From: an uncultured Chitinophagaceae bacterium
Lineage (GTDB): Bacteria > Bacteroidota > Bacteroidia > Chitinophagales > LD1
Direction of reading: 5' to 3'
Length of the DNA: 64,000 nt
NCBI GenBank assembly: GCA_964537475.1
Contig: CAZIBY010000008.1
Location: 4,200-68,199, forward strand
A program made the position numbers and the translations under genes. Position 1 is the stretch's first letter; each line of letters opens with the position of its first letter. Of this stretch, positions 2,388 to 41,665 are shown one piece after another. Below the pieces are notes generated by a model. That model did not search any database and had not been told where the DNA came from. It saw only the letters and a program-made list of their open reading frames with translations.

Positions 2388-2409
2388 GCAGAATAGGCAG
2401 AAATGATCT

Positions 2410-2437
2410 GAATCAGAATTTGCAGGATTTTAGAATT
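2410..2437. repeat. left arm of the inverted repeat bracketing GxxExxY gene 1
   Basis: gaatcagaatttgcaggattttagaatt. Its reverse complement matches 2885..2912 at 26/28. Both mismatches are G (left) against T (right), which gives G.U pairs in the sense RNA. Confidence 0.85.
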
Positions 2438-2463
2438 GATAGAATTAATGCAGATCAGGGGAG

Positions 2464-2859
2464 ATGGAGAAGGATGAACTAACCTATACTGTCATAGGCT
2501 GCGCCATGGCTGTGTATAATAAGTTAGGTAATGGGTTCCAGGAAGTCATCTATCAGCGGTGCTTAGCCATCGAATTAGGAAAGACAAAACTGAATTTTGC
2601 ACGTGAGATAGAGCACCCTATCTTTTACGATGATATGGAGGTAGGTACCAGAAGAGCCGATTTTATCATAGAGGGTAAATTGGTGGTCGAACTAAAGGCT
2701 ATAATCAATCTTGAAGATGTACACCTGGCTCAAGCCAAAAATTATCTTGTAGCATACCAGTTTCAAAAGGGACTTCTTATTAATTTCGGCGCGACAAGCT
2801 TGCAGTACAAACTAATATTTAATAATAATAGCCAATACAAAGCGGCGACAAAAATCTGA
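2464..2859 (+). CDS. GxxExxY family protein (PD-(D/E)XK nuclease-like fold)
   Basis: GNGFQEVIY matches the GxxExxY motif. ADFII...VVELK gives a D..ExK nuclease-type motif. Length is 131 aa. Confidence 0.85.
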   Translation: MEKDELTYTVIGCAMAVYNKLGNGFQEVIYQRCLAIELGKTKLNFAREIEHPIFYDDMEVGTRRADFIIEGKLVVELKAIINLEDVHLAQAKNYLVAYQFQKGLLINFGATSLQYKLIFNNNSQYKAATKI

Positions 2860-2884
2860 TGCCGGTAGGTTGTATTATTCTGTA

Positions 2885-2912
2885 AATTCTAAAATTCTGT
2901 AAATTCTGATTC
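2885..2912. repeat. right arm of the inverted repeat bracketing GxxExxY gene 1
   Basis: aattctaaaattctgtaaattctgattc. Partner of 2410..2437. ATTCT recurs every 8-9 nt. Confidence 0.85.
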
Positions 2913-2917
2913 CCACA

Positions 2918-3862
2918 ATGTCAGCTATAAAGGATACTCAATTCAATTTTCCCGGCCAGACGGATGTCTATCACGGCAAAGTCCGCGATGTCTATTTTCT
3001 AAAAGATAAATTGATAGCTGTCGCTTCAGACCGTATCTCGGCTTTCGATCACATCCTGCCGAAGCCTATACCCTACAAAGGGCAAGTGCTGAATCAGATC
3101 GCAGCCTACTTTCTCAATGCGACACGCGATATCTGCCCCAACTGGCTGGAGGCCACACCGGACCCCAATGTTTCTATAGGCAAGAAGTGCGAGCCTATAC
3201 GGGTGGAGATGGTGATACGCGGCTACCTGGCAGGCCATTCAGCGCGTGAGTATAAGCTGGGCAAGCGTACGCTCTGCGGAGTAGCGCTGCCGGAGGGGAT
3301 GAGGGAGAATGATAAATTTCCTACACCTATCATCACGCCTGCGGCGAAAGCTATGGAAGGCCATGATGAAGATGCCAGTCGTGAAGAGATACTGGCCAAG
3401 AAGATCGTGACGCCTGAGCAATATGCGAAAATGGAGCAGTACACCTATGGGCTCTTTGCGCGGGGTACGGAGATGGCTGCCAGACAGGGCCTGATACTGG
3501 TAGATACCAAGTATGAGTTTGGCCTGTACAATGGGGAGGTATACCTGATAGATGAGATCCATACGCCGGACTCATCACGCTACTTTTATGCAGAGGGCTA
3601 TGCCGGGCGCCAGGCTGCGGGTGAGCCACAGAAGCAGCTCTCCAAAGAATTTGTACGAGAGTGGCTGATGGCAAACAATTTTGCCGGTAAAGATGGCCAG
3701 ACCATGCCATTCATGCCGGATGATTTTGTGCATACCATCACGGAGCGCTATATAGAGCTGTATGAGCGTGTGACGGGACAGAAGTTTCAGCATGCGGATA
3801 ATTCTGATATCCAGTCGCGCATAGAGAGCAACGTGAAAAAATACCTCGAGTCCGGTATTTAG
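2918..3862 (+). CDS. purC: phosphoribosylaminoimidazole-succinocarboxamide synthase (SAICAR synthase)
   Basis: Long-form PurC signature: [28 protein letters not shown]. Confidence 0.92.
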
Positions 3863-5277
3863 TATTTGTGAGCTACGATCACTACGTCGCCGGTCTTGGC
3901 ATTATCGTCAGCATCTGAGAAGGCATCCATGACCAGGTAGAATGCTACCTGCCCTGTGCAGGAGGCCGTGATCACCGTCTGGATCGATACAGATTGATAC
4001 TCGTCGCGGTCATTGTCAAAATTTTCATCCTGATAGGTATTGTAGAGGTTCACTGTGCCACAAGATCCAGTCTGCACAAATCCGAACTGCACGTCGTCAT
4101 TGCCACTACCACCGGTAAACTTGAATTTGAATGTGGCCGTCACTACTACGATGTCTCCCGCATCCACATTCAGGCTGCTGGTAGAGTTGCTGGCTGTGGT
4201 CCATGTGGTAAGGCTACTGGAGTAGCTGCGCTCGGTCCGGTCTATCACATAGGCTACCTGATTTGGCATGTGGATCGTGTTGCCGTTGGACCCGGAGCCT
4301 GGCAGTCTCATGTCACCGTCCGCCTCCAGCGTCAGCTCCAGTCCGCTGGAGCCTGAGTTAGTACCGCTCAGTACACGCATCGTACCTTGATAGTTGTCTA
4401 TAAACCATGCCTGCGTGTATGCGGTGCCGGAGTTGAGTTGTAGCTGGCCACCCTCACTGCTGCCGGTGCTGACGGTAGCGCCTAGTACCAGATTTGACTC
4501 TGATGGTATGGTAGTGGCACCTATACCCACATTACCATTGTTGCTGATGCGCATCGCCTCGGTAGTGGTAGCACTATTGGCGGTAGATGTATTGCCCACC
4601 TCAAAGACGATCGATCCGTTATTGGAGCCCATATCCAGCGCACCTATACGGGCCGATACCCCTGCCGTACTGGCATAGGTCAGAAAGTCGATGTACGCTT
4701 TATTGCCTGCACTGCCTATAGAGCTGGATACTTTCAGAATGTCTGTAGCGTTGGCATAGATCTCTGCCGGCGTGGCCGGTGTGGCCGTGCCTATACCTAC
4801 ATTGCCGCCGCTGAGTATGCGCATGCGCTCTTTGTCACTCGTACCAAAGACGAGGGCCTTGGCGTCTGTAGTGCCTATGAAGTTTTCAGTACTGCCTATC
4901 GTACTCGTGCCATAGGTAGCAGGCGCTGCAGGTGCGTTGATGCCACTATTCCCCAGCAGGTTCCAGTCTTTGTTGGTATTGTCGTCCAGCTTGATCCAGC
5001 CGGATCCATTCCAGTAGTAGTAGCCGGGAGTCACGTTGGTAGGGTAGGTGCCTGTAGTAGCGGTATTGTAGATCAGTGTAGAGGTAGCGGGTGATGTGAT
5101 AGGCGAGGCTGTAGTGGTAGCAGTGAGTGCTACCCTCGGGATCATCACGCCGCTATTGGTAGAGGTGATCTCCAGTTTAGCCGAGGGAGTGGTGGTACCG
5201 ATACCCACATTCTGAGCACGGATCGTATCAAACCCGCAGGCTAAGAATATGGACAGGGCAATTATTACTCGTTTCAT
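3859..5277 (-). CDS. secreted repeat protein with tail-fibre-like GNVGIGT motifs
   Basis: Signal peptide [15 protein letters not shown] from the internal Met at 5277. There are three copies of (Q/G)NVGIG(T/A)T(T/A/I)P followed by a Thr/Ser/Gly-rich region. The 3' end overlaps the purC stop by 4 nt (convergent). Confidence 0.6.
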
Positions 5278-5484: not shown

Positions 5485-7347
5485 TTGAAAATCCTCGGCA
5501 TCTCAGCTTACTATCACGACTCTGCTGCTGCACTCACTGTAGATGGGCAGATCATAGCTGCTGTGCAGGAGGAGCGCTTTACCCGTATCAAGCACGATGA
5601 TAGTTTCCCTATTCACGCAGTACGCTACTGCCTGGAGTATGCGGGTCTGACCATAGATCAGCTGGATGCTGTAGTGTTTTATGACAAGCCATTTATCAAG
5701 TTTGAGCGGCTCATAGAGACCTACTATAGCTATGCACCTAAGGGGATCATATCATTTCTGAAGGCGATGCCTATATGGATGAGAGAGAAGCTCTTTCTGC
5801 GCAATATCATCAAGGATGAACTGGAGGAGGTGATGGAGTATGACCGCAAGAAAGTCAAGATACTTTTCCCCGAGCATCATCTCTCTCATGCCGCCAGCGC
5901 CTTTTACCCATCTCCCTATCAGGATGCTGCGATACTCACTATAGACGGAGTGGGAGAGTGGGCTACTGCGTCCATCTCTCAGGGCCAAGGCAGCGATATC
6001 ACCGTGCTCAAGGAATTACACTTCCCGGACTCCGTCGGGTTGCTATATTCTGCATTTACCTACTACCTGGGCTTTAAGGTCAATAGCGGGGAGTACAAGC
6101 TCATGGGCCTGGCACCATACGGTATAGACGGTTCTGAGCGGGTCGAGCATTTCAAAAAGATCATCTGCGAGAAACTGGTAAAGATCAGTGACGATGGCTC
6201 GATACGGCTGGACCAGCAATACTTTGATTATGCTGTGGGATTGCGCATGGCTCGTGATGTACGCTGGACTGATCTGTTCGGTTTCAAAAGGCGCAAGAAG
6301 GAAGATGAGCCATTGACTCAGGCGCACTGCGATCTGGCGCTGGCCATACAGCAGGTCACAGAGGACATCGTGCTCAAAATGGCCGCTGAGGCCAAACGCC
6401 TGACGGGGTCTGACAATATCTGCCTGGCTGGCGGCGTAGCGCTGAACTGTGTAGCCAATGGTAAACTCCTCAGGCAGGGGACATTTAAAAATATATGGAT
6501 ACAGCCGGCTGCCGGTGATGCCGGTGGCGCACTGGGCGCAGCCCTGGCCGCGGAGTACATCTATGCAGGCACGGCACGTACTACTGATGGGCAGCATGAT
6601 GGTATGCAGGGAGCATATCTGGGCCCTGCCTATACAGATGAAAACATCCAAGCAGTACTCAGTAAGTACAAAGCCATCTCTACGCACTATCTCACTACAG
6701 AAAGCCTCTGTAATGCTGTGGCAGAACTGATAGAGCTGGGCATGGTGGTGGGCTGGTATCAAGGCAGAGCGGAGTTTGGACCAAGGGCTCTGGGCAACAG
6801 GACTATCCTGGCCGACCCGCGCAACGGCGAGATGCAGCAAAAGCTGAACCTGAAGATCAAATACCGCGAAGGCTTCCGTCCGTTCGCTCCGAGTGTGCTG
6901 GCAGAAGATGTGGCTGAGTACTTTGACCTGGACGGTGAGTCGCCGTATATGCTGCTGGTGGCTGATGTGAATAGTAATATAAGGAAGCCCGTATCCCCGG
7001 GATATGCCGGCAAGCCGATGATGGAGCGCCTATATACGGAGCGCTCCACCCTGCAGTCTGTCACGCACGTAGATTTCTCGGCCAGGGTACAGACTGTGAG
7101 CAGGGAGACAAATCCGCTGTATCACCAGTTGCTAAGTGCATTTAAGGCTAAAACAGGCTGCGGCGTACTGGTCAATACAAGTTTCAATGTCAGGGGTGAG
7201 CCGCCGGTACTCACGCCGGAAGATGCCTTGCTGTGCTTCATGCATACCGAGATGGATGTGCTGGTACTGGGCTCCTATATATTGCTGAAATCTGAGCAAC
7301 CGGATATGAGTAGTACCTTACCGAAAAAACGATTTAAATTAGACTAA
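5485..7347 (+). CDS. carbamoyltransferase (NodU/CmcH family)
   Basis: N-terminus (M)KILGISAYYHDSAAAL, the family hallmark. Length is 620 aa. The TTG start sits exactly at the canonical Met position. Confidence 0.9.
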   Translation: MKILGISAYYHDSAAALTVDGQIIAAVQEERFTRIKHDDSFPIHAVRYCLEYAGLTIDQLDAVVFYDKPFIKFERLIETYYSYAPKGIISFLKAMPIWMREKLFLRNIIKDELEEVMEYDRKKVKILFPEHHLSHAASAFYPSPYQDAAILTIDGVGEWATASISQGQGSDITVLKELHFPDSVGLLYSAFTYYLGFKVNSGEYKLMGLAPYGIDGSERVEHFKKIICEKLVKISDDGSIRLDQQYFDYAVGLRMARDVRWTDLFGFKRRKKEDEPLTQAHCDLALAIQQVTEDIVLKMAAEAKRLTGSDNICLAGGVALNCVANGKLLRQGTFKNIWIQPAAGDAGGALGAALAAEYIYAGTARTTDGQHDGMQGAYLGPAYTDENIQAVLSKYKAISTHYLTTESLCNAVAELIELGMVVGWYQGRAEFGPRALGNRTILADPRNGEMQQKLNLKIKYREGFRPFAPSVLAEDVAEYFDLDGESPYMLLVADVNSNIRKPVSPGYAGKPMMERLYTERSTLQSVTHVDFSARVQTVSRETNPLYHQLLSAFKAKTGCGVLVNTSFNVRGEPPVLTPEDALLCFMHTEMDVLVLGSYILLKSEQPDMSSTLPKKRFKLD

Positions 7348-20873: not shown

Positions 20874-22121
20874 CTAGGCAGAGATCTGTTTGCTCAGGTC
20901 GATCATCCTGACCAGTCGGCTCACCTGATTCTCTGAATCCTTTACGTACTCATTTTTTACGTCCCAGACGTAGCCGGCCAGTACGGAGCAGATCTTATTG
21001 ACCACATCTGTAGGGCGGTAGTCGTTGAAGAAGATCTTTTGCAGCCTGCCATCATACCAGGCCATGACATACGTGCGGAAGGTATCTACTCCCGTCATCA
21101 TCACGTCCATGTAGTCTTTCTGCCAGTCTATTTGCTCGCCGTTCAGTTGCCTGACCACCAGGTCTGCGGCCAGCCTGGATGAGGTGACTGCCAGCGTGAC
21201 ACCAGATGAAAAAACAGGATCGAGGAACTCGGTCACATTGCCCGTGAGTACAAAGCCATCGCCATAAAATTTATCGCAGGTAGCAGACCAGGATTGTATC
21301 ACACGCGGCTCAAAGAGGAACTCGCAACCCTCAAAGCGCTCAGCGATATTGGGGTCGCTGGCTATGATAGCGCGGAGCTGCTCCTCAGGCGTACCTGTGA
21401 AGGCATCAAAGAAGCCCGGCTCACTGACAAAGCCGCAGGACGTGACACCGTCTGCGAAAGGTATGCACCACGCCCATACACCCGGCGCGTGATCTACTAT
21501 GAGGATGCGGTTCGGCTCTACATAGTTATTGCGGCGGGTATCGCGGATGTGGGTGAAGAGTGTCTTGCGTGATGGCAGCGTAGAGGGCTTCTCCATATTG
21601 AACATACGCGGTATGACCCGGCCATAGCCGCTGCCATCTACTATAAATTTTGCTTGTACCTGTTTGGTCTCTCCGGCTGCGGTGGTCATGGTAGTCATGC
21701 TGGTACCACCATCACCAAATTTGATGTCAGTGACAGTAGTCCTGTACTCTACGGCTACGCCCATCTTTTGTACCTCATCTGCCAGTAGTGTGTCAAACTC
21801 AGCGCGCTTGACCTGCCAGGTCCACGACCAGCCCTCTGTAAACTGATCAGAAAAATTGAAATCCATGACCTGACCTGACGTATTGACGAACTTGGCTCCG
21901 AATTTTTCCTGGAAGCCGTGCGCCTTGATAGCGGGCAGAAAGCCTGCTGCATCAAGCGCCTCCATGCACTTCGGCAAAAGGCTCTCACCGATCACAAACC
22001 TCGGGAATTGCTCCTTCTCCACGATCTTTACGGAATATCCTGCTTTGTTTATGATAGCTGCCGCCACCGTGCCTGACGGGCCTGCGCCGATCACCAGTAC
22101 ATCTACTTGTTCAGTTGTCAT
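20874..22121 (-). CDS. FAD-dependent oxidoreductase, flavin-dependent halogenase-like
   Basis: GAGPSGTVAA dinucleotide fold, and WAWCIPF matching the WxWxIP halogenase motif. Confidence 0.75.
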   Translation of the reverse strand: MTTEQVDVLVIGAGPSGTVAAAIINKAGYSVKIVEKEQFPRFVIGESLLPKCMEALDAAGFLPAIKAHGFQEKFGAKFVNTSGQVMDFNFSDQFTEGWSWTWQVKRAEFDTLLADEVQKMGVAVEYRTTVTDIKFGDGGTSMTTMTTAAGETKQVQAKFIVDGSGYGRVIPRMFNMEKPSTLPSRKTLFTHIRDTRRNNYVEPNRILIVDHAPGVWAWCIPFADGVTSCGFVSEPGFFDAFTGTPEEQLRAIIASDPNIAERFEGCEFLFEPRVIQSWSATCDKFYGDGFVLTGNVTEFLDPVFSSGVTLAVTSSRLAADLVVRQLNGEQIDWQKDYMDVMMTGVDTFRTYVMAWYDGRLQKIFFNDYRPTDVVNKICSVLAGYVWDVKNEYVKDSENQVSRLVRMIDLSKQISA

Positions 22122-22187
22122 TGATTTGAATTTTAGGGTGTTTTAGGTTAATACAGTTAAGTCACTTTAGGTAAAAACAAAATAAAC

Positions 22188-22219
22188 TTTGAACCACATA
22201 GGACACATAGATCACATAG
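22188..22219. repeat. left arm of the perfect 32-bp inverted repeat bracketing GxxExxY gene 2
   Basis: tttgaaccacataggacacatagatcacatag. CACATAG occurs at 22195, 22204 and 22213 (9-nt period). Confidence 0.9.
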
Positions 22220-22239
22220 GATATACATTGATACAATTT

Positions 22240-22671
22240 CTACTCATCGGGGAGGTCTTTGTAGGAGTCATTGACAAAGGTTTCCTGACCCAGTTTGAAA
22301 ATATTGTATGCGTTAAAATTAATAACAATTCCTTTGTGTGCCCTGAGCAATGTCATATAACTCAGGACCTGAGCACGATGTATAGGTAATATACTCTCTA
22401 CGGTTTTCAGCTCTACCACAAAACAATCCTCCACCAGTACATCGCATCTGAGGTCTGCCATCACATCTAGTCCTTTATAGACTACGGGGACCGACAGTTC
22501 CGTGCGACAGCGCAGCCCGATCAATCTTAATTCATGCTCAAAACACTTTTGATAGGTACTTTCCAACAGGCCATGCCCCATATGTTTTTGTACCTCGATA
22601 GCAGCACCGATCACCCTGTAGGTTAATTCATCTAGCCACTTCTTGGTTATCCTTGGTTTGTTTTCTTCCAT
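22240..22671 (-). CDS. GxxExxY family protein (PD-(D/E)XK nuclease-like fold)
   Basis: GHGLLESTY matches GxxExxY. CDVLV...VVELK gives D..ExK. By eye it is roughly one-third identical to the 2464..2859 copy. Confidence 0.85.
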   Translation of the reverse strand: MEENKPRITKKWLDELTYRVIGAAIEVQKHMGHGLLESTYQKCFEHELRLIGLRCRTELSVPVVYKGLDVMADLRCDVLVEDCFVVELKTVESILPIHRAQVLSYMTLLRAHKGIVINFNAYNIFKLGQETFVNDSYKDLPDE

Positions 22672-22707
22672 TATAGATTCAAAGTCTAATGTTCTCTGAG
22701 TAAATTT

Positions 22708-22739
22708 CTATGTGATCTATGTGTCCTATGTGGTTCAAA
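22708..22739. repeat. right arm of the perfect 32-bp inverted repeat bracketing GxxExxY gene 2
   Basis: ctatgtgatctatgtgtcctatgtggttcaaa is the exact reverse complement of 22188..22219. It overlaps the stop codon (22735-22737) of the KS gene. Confidence 0.9.
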
Positions 22740-23868
22740 AACTTGTATTCCTCTGCAGCACCAGAGCTGCATTGCAGCCGCCAAAACCCGAGGCGGTTTT
22801 CAGCGCATGAGATTTGTCAGAAGATACTAAAACCTTGTTGACCTTCACCAGGCCCGGCACACCGATCTCTGCATAGCCGTGGCTGGCCAGCACTTTCTTT
22901 TCGCGTAGCGAATGAATGGTCATAACAGTCTCTATCACGCCGGCAGCACCCAGCGTATGGCCAAAGTAACCCTTCAAACTGTGTAACGGCGTATCACTCA
23001 GCCCCGCTCTCTCAAACGCTTTGCTCTCCATTTCATCATTGTAGAGTGTAGCCGTACCATGGGCAGAGATGAATGCAATATCCTCAGTCGTGATGCTGCT
23101 ACGGCTGACAGCTTTGGTCACGGCATCTGCCAGCTCAGCGCCCGTGCGCGACGGGCCGGAGATGTGATTAGCGTCATTGGTCAGGCCTTCACCCAGTACC
23201 TCGATACTATTGGCACCCAGCTGAGATAGATCATTTGTCAAAACTAGTGTGGCCGCACCCTCACCGAGGTTGATCCCTTTGCGCGCTTTATCAAATGGAC
23301 GGCAAGGCCCATCACTGATTGCCATGAGGCTCTGGAAGCCCGATACCACAAAATGTGACAGCACATCTGCACCGGTCACTACGGCATGCTTATACCGGCC
23401 AGAGTCTATCAGTCTTTTGGCGGTGATGATAGCCACTACACCTGAGATGCAGGCATTGGAGACTACGATAGGTTTATTCACTGCGTGAAAGTGTGCCGTG
23501 ATACAGTCGGCGGAGCGTGACAGGGAGAGCTCACTTTCCGGTGCTCTATCTGCCAGCAGTTCGATATTACCTTTGGTAGTAGAAAGAATGAAGATGGTGT
23601 CCGGGTCGTCAAGTCTGATGGCAGTACGTGCCAGAGCGTCTGTGACGGACAGGATACACAGCCTGTCAAAGCGTGTGTGTGCCTCATCCGCCGGGGGCAG
23701 TGTAGTATCATCTATGCGAGCTGCATAGAGAGGGGTAGGGGACAGGTGCAGGTCAGATATGAGCGAGATGCCGGAATCGCCTGCGGAGACACGCGCATAG
23801 TTCTCTGCCGAGGTGGTGCCCAGCGGAGAGATCACATTATCAGCTACAATGTAAACGGGAGAAGACAT
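22735..23868 (-). CDS. beta-ketoacyl synthase family protein
   Basis: Active-site Cys (SNACISG), plus His motifs AHGTAT and GHTLGAAG. Confidence 0.85.
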   Translation of the reverse strand: MSSPVYIVADNVISPLGTTSAENYARVSAGDSGISLISDLHLSPTPLYAARIDDTTLPPADEAHTRFDRLCILSVTDALARTAIRLDDPDTIFILSTTKGNIELLADRAPESELSLSRSADCITAHFHAVNKPIVVSNACISGVVAIITAKRLIDSGRYKHAVVTGADVLSHFVVSGFQSLMAISDGPCRPFDKARKGINLGEGAATLVLTNDLSQLGANSIEVLGEGLTNDANHISGPSRTGAELADAVTKAVSRSSITTEDIAFISAHGTATLYNDEMESKAFERAGLSDTPLHSLKGYFGHTLGAAGVIETVMTIHSLREKKVLASHGYAEIGVPGLVKVNKVLVSSDKSHALKTASGFGGCNAALVLQRNTSF

Positions 23869-40898: not shown

Positions 40899-41444
40899 AT
40901 GCGCAAACTCCAAAACTCAGAGCTCACCCGCCTCACCCCTGAGCAGTTCAAAGCTAATGAGAAGCTACCCGTCATCATCGTGCTGGACAATGTCCGCTCG
41001 CACCTGAATGTCGGCTCTGTCTTCCGCTCTGCAGATGCCTTTCTCATAGAGGCCATCTACCTCTGCGGCATCACCGGCACACCCCCGCACCGCGACATTC
41101 ACAAGGCCGCCCTCGGCGCCACAGAGACTGTAGAGTGGAAATACTTTGACACCACCGCAGCAGCCATAGACAAACTCAAAACCAAAGGCTATCAAATTGC
41201 CTCCATAGAGCAAGCCGAAAACGCCACCATGCTCCACGATCTGAACTACGCAGGAGAAAAACTAGCCTTAGTATTCGGCAACGAAGTAGACGGCGTAGAC
41301 CAGCAGATCGTCACCGCCTCTGATAAAGTAATAGAGATACCACAATACGGCACCAAGCATTCACTCAATATCTCAGTATCGGTAGGGATTGTTTTGTGGG
41401 AGATCGCCAGGAATACAGGTATCACAGAGCGCACAAAGGTTTGA
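40899..41444 (+). CDS. TrmH/SpoU family RNA 2'-O-methyltransferase
   Basis: SpoU motifs VLDNVRSHLNVGSVFRSADAF, LVFGNEVDGV and IPQYGTKHSLNISVSVGIVLWE. The Met at 40899 is preferred over the track start. Confidence 0.85.
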   Translation: MRKLQNSELTRLTPEQFKANEKLPVIIVLDNVRSHLNVGSVFRSADAFLIEAIYLCGITGTPPHRDIHKAALGATETVEWKYFDTTAAAIDKLKTKGYQIASIEQAENATMLHDLNYAGEKLALVFGNEVDGVDQQIVTASDKVIEIPQYGTKHSLNISVSVGIVLWEIARNTGITERTKV

Positions 41445-41492
41445 GTAAAACAGCCAATTTGAGAACACAAAGCAACTACGTTACTTCTCCAT

Positions 41493-41665
41493 GACCTCAA
41501 ACAATCAGCTTTATGAGTTAGAAAATCTCTATGAACTCTGTGTAGTAAGGCTGTTGAGTTTGTATTCCTCCGTGATCTCAAACAATCAGCTCTATGAGTA
41601 ATAAAACCTCTGTGTCCTCTGTGATAAAGGCCGTTCAAACTCTGAGCCTCTGTGTAGTAAACCTC
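41493..41665. repeat. tandem repeat of about 81 bp (2 full copies plus a partial third) in a convergent spacer
   Basis: Copy A starts at 41493 and copy B at 41574. They share ctcaaacaatcagct.tatgagt...ctct.tg...ctctgtg and are about three-quarters identical by eye. CCTCTGTG 8-mers occur at 41607 and 41616 (9 nt apart) and again at 41647. Confidence 0.75.

Follow-up and report, generated by a model that had tools for sequence, protein, structure and literature searches.

The 23S rRNA intervening sequences of Leptospira, Coxiella, Brucella and Xanthomonas are inserts closed by a terminal stem, whose loop carries one small open reading frame (ORF) in sense with the host transcript. That of Coxiella measures 428 nt, has a 28-bp terminal stem, encodes in sense a single protein of the four-helix-bundle S23p family and is a substrate of RNase III; intervening sequences of this kind are regarded as selfish and have a patchy distribution (PMC4990558). 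Here we describe an element at positions 22188–22739 of a 64,000-nt stretch of DNA from an uncultured Chitinophagaceae bacterium (contig CAZIBY010000008.1; the whole stretch is called the window below) that resembles these inserts in size (about 430–550 nt), stem length (about 28–32 bp) and ORF layout. Unlike them, it is located in a protein-coding operon and not in an rRNA helix, its arms are composed of conserved heptamer units, and its ORF encodes a predicted PD-(D/E)XK nuclease of the GxxExxY (PDDEXK_3) family, whose function was given as unknown in a 2012 survey (PMC3424549). Our analysis indicates that 22188–22739 belongs to a widespread type of compact foldback cassette, in which a single small gene stands between inverted arrays of tandem units.

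The REP/RAYT (REPIN) systems offer a second parallel, since there too a single nuclease-type gene is flanked by its own short inverted repeats, gene-less hairpin doublets occur elsewhere, and the system persists vertically for long periods under purifying selection. Their copy pattern, few genes and many gene-less repeats, appears to be the reverse of that found here, where the gene is multi-copy, each copy has arms of its own and gene-less copies were rare in the loci surveyed (0.14/kb). The two also differ in fold, PD-(D/E)XK as opposed to HUH/Y1 (IS200/IS605-like), and in the repeats, which are tandem heptamer arrays here and a single GTAG- or CGTC-tagged palindrome in REP/RAYT.

A repeat search returned a perfect inverted repeat at 22188–22219 and 22708–22739, with arms of 32 nt, 100% complementarity and a separation of 488 nt, as reported in the initial annotation of the window. 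The periodicity that it had noticed in the arms was confirmed: each consists of an outer TTTGAAC motif and three CACATAG units at 9-nt spacing (CACATAG starting at 22195, 22204 and 22213, and CTATGTG at 22708, 22717 and 22726). Also correct were its statements that the right arm overlaps the stop codon of the beta-ketoacyl-ACP synthase (KS) gene, which is at 22735–22737 inside the 22708–22739 arm, and that the GxxExxY gene runs in the same direction as the KS and halogenase-like genes; all three are on the minus strand, although plus-strand coordinates had been used. The parts of this locus, called cassette 1, are as follows, upstream and downstream being given in gene orientation.

22735–23868, minus strand: upstream host gene, KS, whose last codons and stop come from the arm
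22708–22739, minus strand: upstream arm, reading TTTGAAC-CACATAG-GA-CACATAG-AT-CACATAG on the minus strand
22672–22707, minus strand: leader of 36 nt from the upstream arm to the ATG, moderately conserved among orthologues
22240–22671, minus strand: GxxExxY/PDDEXK_3 gene, 143 aa, the sole family-matching ORF between the arms
22220–22239, minus strand: trailer of 20 nt from the stop codon to the downstream arm
22188–22219, minus strand: downstream arm, reading CTATGTG-AT-CTATGTG-TC-CTATGTG-GTTCAAA on the minus strand, the exact reverse complement of 22708–22739
20874–22121, minus strand: downstream host gene, FAD-dependent halogenase-like protein

The same arrangement recurred across the family. 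When metagenomes were scanned with an alignment of 25 GxxExxY sequences, 80 additional loci from a wide range of organisms were recovered, with 76 usable genes. Arrays were found upstream of 55/76 and downstream of 56/76 of these genes, as compared with 16% of 1,095 control ORFs from the same loci on each side; both sides carried arrays in 43/76 (57%), against 4.4% of the controls. Inverted repeats and periodicity, which the initial annotation had suggested scoring in the flanks of all such genes, are therefore present in most, and the packaging as a gene cassette that it had proposed for one gene holds family-wide. The best complementarity between 150-nt flanks had a median of 12 and that of cross-locus pairs a median of 8, a control that is inflated because the loci share arm motifs. 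Array density was 4.5/kb within 300 nt of a GxxExxY gene and 0.14/kb farther out, a 32-fold difference, and of the 28 small ORFs in about 1.3 Mb whose flanking inverted repeats scored 17 or higher, 24 were GxxExxY genes; one of the other four was a genuine RAYT flanked by REPs, which served as a positive control of the screen. In about 0.9 Mb of loci from related Chitinophagaceae, the only arrays were those at the junction occupied by the cassette in relatives. Within the window, the two strongest inverted repeats in a scan of pairs within 1.5 kb were the brackets of its two GxxExxY genes, and arrays of at least three 7-mer units at 8–10-nt spacing were confined to the four arms of these cassettes, a result far beyond chance. 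The cassettes were located in short spacers between neighbouring genes and were co-oriented with the upstream neighbour in 41/44 cases (93%), with the downstream neighbour in 47/54 and with both in 25/27. Gene-less hairpins with the matching unit were present elsewhere on the same contigs in loci L095, L103, L129 and L146. A pattern scan of 2.9 million viral contigs (IMG/VR) did not find GxxExxY, and it occurred in only 8 of 72,556 plasmids, all of them large and non-mobilizable. Arms and gene behave as a single heritable unit, the arms accompanying the gene in dozens of genomic settings that have nothing else in common.

The second GxxExxY gene of the window encodes a protein 34% identical to the first and is bracketed in its turn; a third group of repeats in the window has no gene. 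Their features are listed here.

2397–2445, plus strand: cassette 2 upstream arm, core 2410–2445 being GAATCAGAAT-TTGCAGGAT-TTTAGAAT-TGATAGAAT, with [C/T]AGAAT units at a period of about 9 nt
2464–2859, plus strand: second GxxExxY gene, of 131 aa, with a phoH-like gene and purC on either side in the same direction
2877–2925, plus strand: cassette 2 downstream arm, core 2877–2912 being ATTCTGTAA-ATTCTAAA-ATTCTGTAA-ATTCTGATTC
41420–41660, no strand assigned: gene-less cluster of cassette-type repeats between convergent genes

The arms of cassette 2 (2397–2445 and 2877–2925) are 49 nt long and 80% complementary, and their cores match at 32/36 positions. The initial annotation had described this copy as having the same architecture with an unrelated arm sequence; the architecture (outer motif, three to four units, 9-nt period) is indeed shared, while the arms proved unrelated only at the level of letters. 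Most GxxExxY arms begin with an outer (TT)nnACC, followed by CACNNAG-type heptamers every 8–9 nt (CACATAG, CACGGAG, CACGAAG, CACCAAG, CACTAAG, CACAGAG or CGCCGAG, for example), and they occur in two layouts, F[gene]R and (F R)[gene](F R), the latter with a full local hairpin on each side. Mismatches between arms amounted to 6% at unit positions and 44% in spacers. The unit type followed the protein subfamily and not the host site, as illustrated by CACATAG and CAGAAT in one genome. The distance from arm to start codon ranged from 0 to 120 nt across cassettes, the upstream array abutting the start codon (0–5 nt) in L135, L123, L085, L154, L160, L088 and L114.

A scan of a genome collection with the KS protein as query gave 80 loci, in which a GxxExxY gene stood between KS and halogenase only in the nearest relatives of the window (L002/L003, L004 and L001/L005). 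The bracket was kept in every KS–halogenase locus that has the gene, and the upstream arm of cassette 1 was retained in all of these relatives. The variable spacer of cassette 1 changed jointly on both arms, being GA/TC in the window, AA/TT in L004 and AG/CT in L005, and the L005 cassette had two units upstream against three downstream. Cassette 2 was found between phoH and purC in L232, L233 and L234, and its second unit had changed from CAG to CTG on both arms in L232 and L233. When the window was compared with L004, each arm was 31/32 identical, while the synonymous divergence (dS) of the enclosed gene was saturated, so that the arm sequence itself is constrained, beyond pairing. The ratio of nonsynonymous to synonymous divergence (dN/dS) of the cassette 1 gene was 0.04, and the GxxExxY protein is thus under strong purifying selection. 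This ratio, the arm identity and the paired spacer changes together show that protein, arm sequence and arm complementarity are all maintained. The initial annotation had taken the differing arms of the two cassettes as a sign of a structural rule and not of a conserved recognition site; the shared ACC and CACNNAG grammar, the 6% versus 44% mismatch and the 31/32 arm identity contradict this.

Comparison of the KS/halogenase junction in relatives, suggested as a check for empty sites, did reveal presence/absence polymorphism, but remnants in place of clean empty sites. L006 and L007, which lack the gene, retained CATAGAAAT together with part of the downstream spacer; L008 retained a solo CTATGTG array, and in L009 a solo CACATAG array, oppositely oriented, occupied the narrow space that separates the KS stop from the halogenase ATG. 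At the other position, L231 had cassette 2 reduced to a remnant still coding LINFGA. No clean empty site was found at either cassette position, and every gene-less orthologous junction found holds remnants, indicating losses by deletion and not virgin sites. The cassettes are old at both sites of the window, and they are lost by ordinary deletion, with solo arrays remaining. No direct repeat flanked the arms when the three orthologous ends of the window, L004 and L005 were inspected by eye for a target-site duplication.

Between L004 and L005, dS was 0.21 for the cassette as compared with 1.0 for the adjacent KS and 0.71 for the halogenase, and identity rose from about 0.78 to 0.95 at the upstream arm. 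This discordance hints at transfer of the cassette between lineages, a reading that we keep as suggestive only because the halogenase side of the comparison is also about 90% identical and other mosaic recombination tracts exist in the region. The KS gene (22735–23868) is itself mosaic, with one tract (alignment columns 480–700) about 90% identical between the window and L005 and only 60–78% identical to L004, which indicates frequent homologous recombination in this cluster. The C-terminus of KS differed in each lineage (window 22730–22739; L004 about 7119–7131; L005 about 7125–7137; L006 about 3290–3325), its stop being the TGA in TTTGAACC where the cassette is present and the TAG of a vestigial unit in L006 and L007. 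Insertion of the cassette would thus have rewritten the C-terminal end of KS. In annotation, the arrays can serve to delimit cassettes and to recognise their decayed remnants, and they explain odd C-termini of neighbouring genes, such as a KS stop that comes from an arm. The host genes of cassette 1 are pigment-pathway genes; beyond the halogenase-like gene follow, likewise on the minus strand, genes for a thioesterase, an LpxL-like acyltransferase, an acyl carrier protein and another KS.

The 143-aa protein matched TIGR04256 (GxxExxY) with 120.8 bits (cut-off 35, E 3.6e-35) and PF13366 (PDDEXK_3) with 116.4 bits (cut-off 22, E 1.1e-33). G34, E37 and Y40 of the GxxExxY motif and D77, E87 and K89 of the D...E-x-K motif were invariant in the 25-sequence alignment, so the D..ELK motif that had been called intact is so. 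The AlphaFold2 model had a confidence (pLDDT) of 94 and an alpha-beta core, for which the nearest solved folds in Foldseek were Cas4 SSO0001 (4ic1, the best), lambda exonuclease, RecE and the AdnAB nuclease domain, all at a TM score of about 0.4, a generic similarity that does not define a function. A family-profile search of PDB sequences gave a marginal Cas4 match only, and PADLOC and PHROGs gave weak Cas4-like matches without assignment to a defence system. The protein is thus predicted to be a minimal PD-(D/E)XK nuclease of the Cas4/RecB-like branch. For this very large multi-copy family, the fixed cis-architecture provides a first concrete handle on function, consisting of inverted heptamer arrays, co-orientation in operons and strong purifying selection.

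The likeness to RNase III-excised rRNA intervening sequences, raised in the initial annotation, turned out to be apt, since the four-helix-bundle family of the intervening-sequence protein (PF05635) shows equivalent inverted tandem-unit arms between ordinary genes. We collected 46 distinct four-helix-bundle (PF05635/PF22296) genes from ordinary genomic contexts, and in 38/46 the complementarity of the flanks exceeded the 95th percentile of the cross-locus control (median 15 versus 7). Their arms were tandem short units, mostly of period 7 (AGTCTGT, GTAGGCT, AGTGGAG, ACGTTCA, GTTGCCA, GGGTGTA), so that the grammar is family-specific, with period 8–9 and CACNNAG for GxxExxY and period 7 for the four-helix-bundle genes. 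This common bracket ties the operon-resident cassettes to the ORF-bearing rRNA intervening sequences and suggests one element class with a common logic. A packaging rule for two unrelated small-gene families points to a widespread, apparently undescribed kind of self-contained cassette; no description of the bracketing of either family was found in open-access full text, a scope that leaves aside the curator comments on TIGR04256 and TIGR02436. In L086 and L140 the operon of the GxxExxY gene also carried a four-helix-bundle gene (at 4479–4832 and 1397–1759, respectively), placed one host gene farther downstream, so that the two kinds of cassette occur close together. In L163, L183, L185, L186 and L198 the four-helix-bundle ORF was in frame within a much longer open reading frame, which suggests insertion inside a coding gene rather than between genes; the sequence downstream of it in L163 resembles what we take to be a DNA methyltransferase C-terminus.

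When the transcripts were folded, as had been suggested, a long stem was predicted for both cassettes in minimum free energy and centroid folds (32–33 bp and z = −4.5 for cassette 1; z = −2.8 for cassette 2). A scan of 22050–22850, leader included, found no sigma-70 promoter, the consensus being poorly suited to Bacteroidota, and no intrinsic terminator, and a gathering-threshold scan of the whole window gave no match to an Rfam family. The cassette is co-oriented with the host operon and has no recognisable promoter or terminator of its own. The reading that we favour, though tentatively and at somewhat under an even chance, is that of a selfish or hitchhiking, intervening-sequence-like foldback cassette within an mRNA operon, transcribed by read-through, whose units would be sequence-specific sites. 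Read-through from the host operon would transcribe the cassette, and the arms would pair in the transcript to give a stem of about 25–35 bp with the insert looped out, a layout as in the ORF-bearing intervening sequences of 23S rRNA. The stem would probably direct double-strand-specific processing, and it may shield the host operon from the insert and determine both the termini of the cassette mRNA and how long it lasts. In addition, the heptamer units would be sequence-specific sites, most plausibly bound by the cassette's own protein, which would explain why they are conserved far above the spacers, and the tandem build may let pairing tolerate slippage and unequal unit numbers.

Several observations weigh against this reading. 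No sense-strand excess of G.U wobbles was detected between arms, either for GxxExxY (38 versus 35) or for the four-helix-bundle genes (29 versus 23), in a test run twice with different scoring on both families; pairing at the DNA level or a constraint on both strands would fit equally well, and selection at the RNA level is not demonstrated. A plain RNase III stem requires neither heptamer grammar nor periodicity, and the spacers are non-complementary in many cassettes, so that the stem would be interrupted. No rRNA was found in the cassette loci, all of which were compared by BLAST with the E. coli rrn operon, which leaves the common protein family and published work as the basis for the link to true intervening sequences. 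In phage contigs (IMG/VR, L187–L222) four-helix-bundle genes were opposed to both neighbours in 10 cases and co-directed with both in 5; given these antisense cassettes, co-orientation is specific to the GxxExxY set and not universal for the bracket. Sequestration of the ribosome-binding site by the stem was considered as a general rule and rejected in view of the 0–120 nt between arm and ATG.

The alternative that survives best, which we hold to be unlikely but worth serious weight, is a mobile element acting at the DNA level. The arms would be terminal inverted repeats (TIRs) made of several subterminal binding sites, and the nuclease would recognise and cleave its own ends, or a homing nuclease would cut gene-less hairpins or vacated sites and repair would copy the cassette via the 25–35-bp homology of the arms; arm complementarity would then be a by-product of the same protein binding both ends and of occasional gene conversion or foldback templating. 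A gene for a predicted nuclease with an intact catalytic motif fits such an element well, but the four-helix-bundle family shares the architecture without a nuclease fold. The conservation of units far above spacers, with arms 31/32 identical where dS is saturated, would be expected of binding sites, as would unit types that track the protein subfamily and not the host site, and the absence of G.U strand bias agrees with a role in DNA. Gene-less hairpins of the matching unit (L095, L103, L129 and L146), the cluster at 41.4 kb of the window and the patchy distribution among close relatives are suggestive of movement; target-site duplications, however, were not seen at the window, L004 and L005 ends, the junctions held only deletion remnants, and the family was absent from the viral contigs and nearly so from the plasmids. 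The low dS of the L004–L005 cassette relative to adjacent KS, with its identity break at the arm, would count in favour, though the nearby mosaic tracts and the similar halogenase side detract from it. Strict co-orientation with the host operon would, moreover, not be expected of a transposon with its own expression signals.

Described mobile systems resemble the cassette in part. Transposon ends with multiple subterminal sites and the eukaryotic Foldback/Galileo elements, whose TIRs are internally repetitive, likewise have inverted ends of short tandem repeats with foldback potential (PMC3573991, PMC4079207), but Foldback/Galileo belong to eukaryotes, their TIRs extend over kilobases and their transposase superfamily is known, and the cassette, unlike transposons, has no target-site duplication, recognised transposase or observed transposition. 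Free-standing homing genes (phage seg/mob and the PD-(D/E)XK enzyme I-Ssp6803I) are also lone small nuclease genes between conserved co-transcribed genes, and they share with the cassette a sporadic presence, degenerate remnants (a cycle of gain, degeneration and loss) and a divergence discordant with one flank. To our knowledge they do not carry brackets of inverted tandem-unit arms, and they differ further in that neither a cleavage site nor a clean empty allele was found for the cassette, and that its family is absent from viral contigs. Integron cassettes, too, combine a promoterless single gene, expressed by read-through, with an imperfect inverted-repeat element, attC, in which structure outweighs sequence. 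An attC is one self-folding site of 57–141 bp at the 3' end, and attC-like arms were rejected because two arms stand around the gene and no integrase, attI or cassette array is nearby; the arm ends did not fit the R-box consensus, and the cassette neighbours were biosynthetic or housekeeping genes. Intervening sequences, REP/RAYT, Foldback-type TIRs and homing genes each have a defining feature that the cassette lacks, and there is a real chance that it is a distinct class. As an example of a classical REP/RAYT pair, L063 contained, at 407–955, an IS200-like Y1 transposase (RAYT-type, HLH motif) flanked by inverted GCGCGTTTGTAACGCGTGC palindromes.

A broader proposal, to which we give still less credence than to the mobile element, is that GxxExxY and four-helix-bundle genes constitute an unrecognised class of minimal autonomous foldback cassettes of about 0.5 kb, in which the product would recognise the arrays at its own ends, the arrays would act as DNA ends or portable homology as well as an RNA excision stem, and the rRNA intervening sequences would be the rRNA-resident subset. 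The nuclease may be of practical interest if it is specific for the programmable-looking heptamer array.

We regard as improbable that the arrays are autoregulatory operators, with an oligomeric protein binding its own flanking units in mRNA or DNA and keeping expression low, the second array being a by-product or a second operator. The RNA-binding comparison would be with TRAP and HutP, which bind spaced NAG triplets, and the structural neighbours Cas4 SSO0001, lambda exonuclease and RecE are toroidal oligomers. The Xanthomonas S23p protein is likewise reported to be a pentameric toroid, according to a quotation in PMC4990558. A fixed period with conserved unit core and variable spacers, a grammar specific to each family and an upstream array often 0–5 nt from the start codon would all suit operators. 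Such operators would, however, leave unexplained both the inverted second array just past the stop codon and the covariation of spacers between the arms of orthologues, and oligomerisation and nucleic-acid binding by GxxExxY are putative only.

That the arrays are ordinary host repeats, REP-like extragenic hairpins serving mRNA stabilisation or termination to which small genes are merely adjacent, is very improbable: gene-less hairpins do exist, some of them between convergent genes (window 41420–41660), and other stutter hairpins flank a host queE in L037 and L041, but the 300 nt around GxxExxY genes are 32-fold richer in arrays than sequence farther out, about 0.9 Mb of loci from related Chitinophagaceae shows none outside the cassette junction, and the cassettes of a single genome differ in unit type.

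The gene-less cluster at 41420–41660 represents a third unit type within the window. It comprises CACAGAG-CG-CACAAAG at 41423–41438 and opposing CTCTGTG arrays at 41599–41626 and 41640–41654, together with CTCTATG units and a GTTCAAA motif; a 28-nt inverted repeat with a loop of 151 nt and a direct repeat of about 23 nt were present, and no GxxExxY remnant was detectable in it.

The junction between queD and queE and the flanks of queE were repeated hosts of small inserts or hairpin repeats in unrelated lineages. In L164–L172 a four-helix-bundle cassette was located between a PTPS and a radical-SAM gene (the queD–queE junction). In L037 (1313–1978) and L041 (1350–2015) a queE-like radical-SAM gene carried on both sides another hairpin repeat with a 14-nt stutter, formed by ATTCACTATTGnCC units within GTGAGAGG...CCTCTCAC stems, which is another REP-like family of Chitinophagaceae metagenome-assembled genomes.

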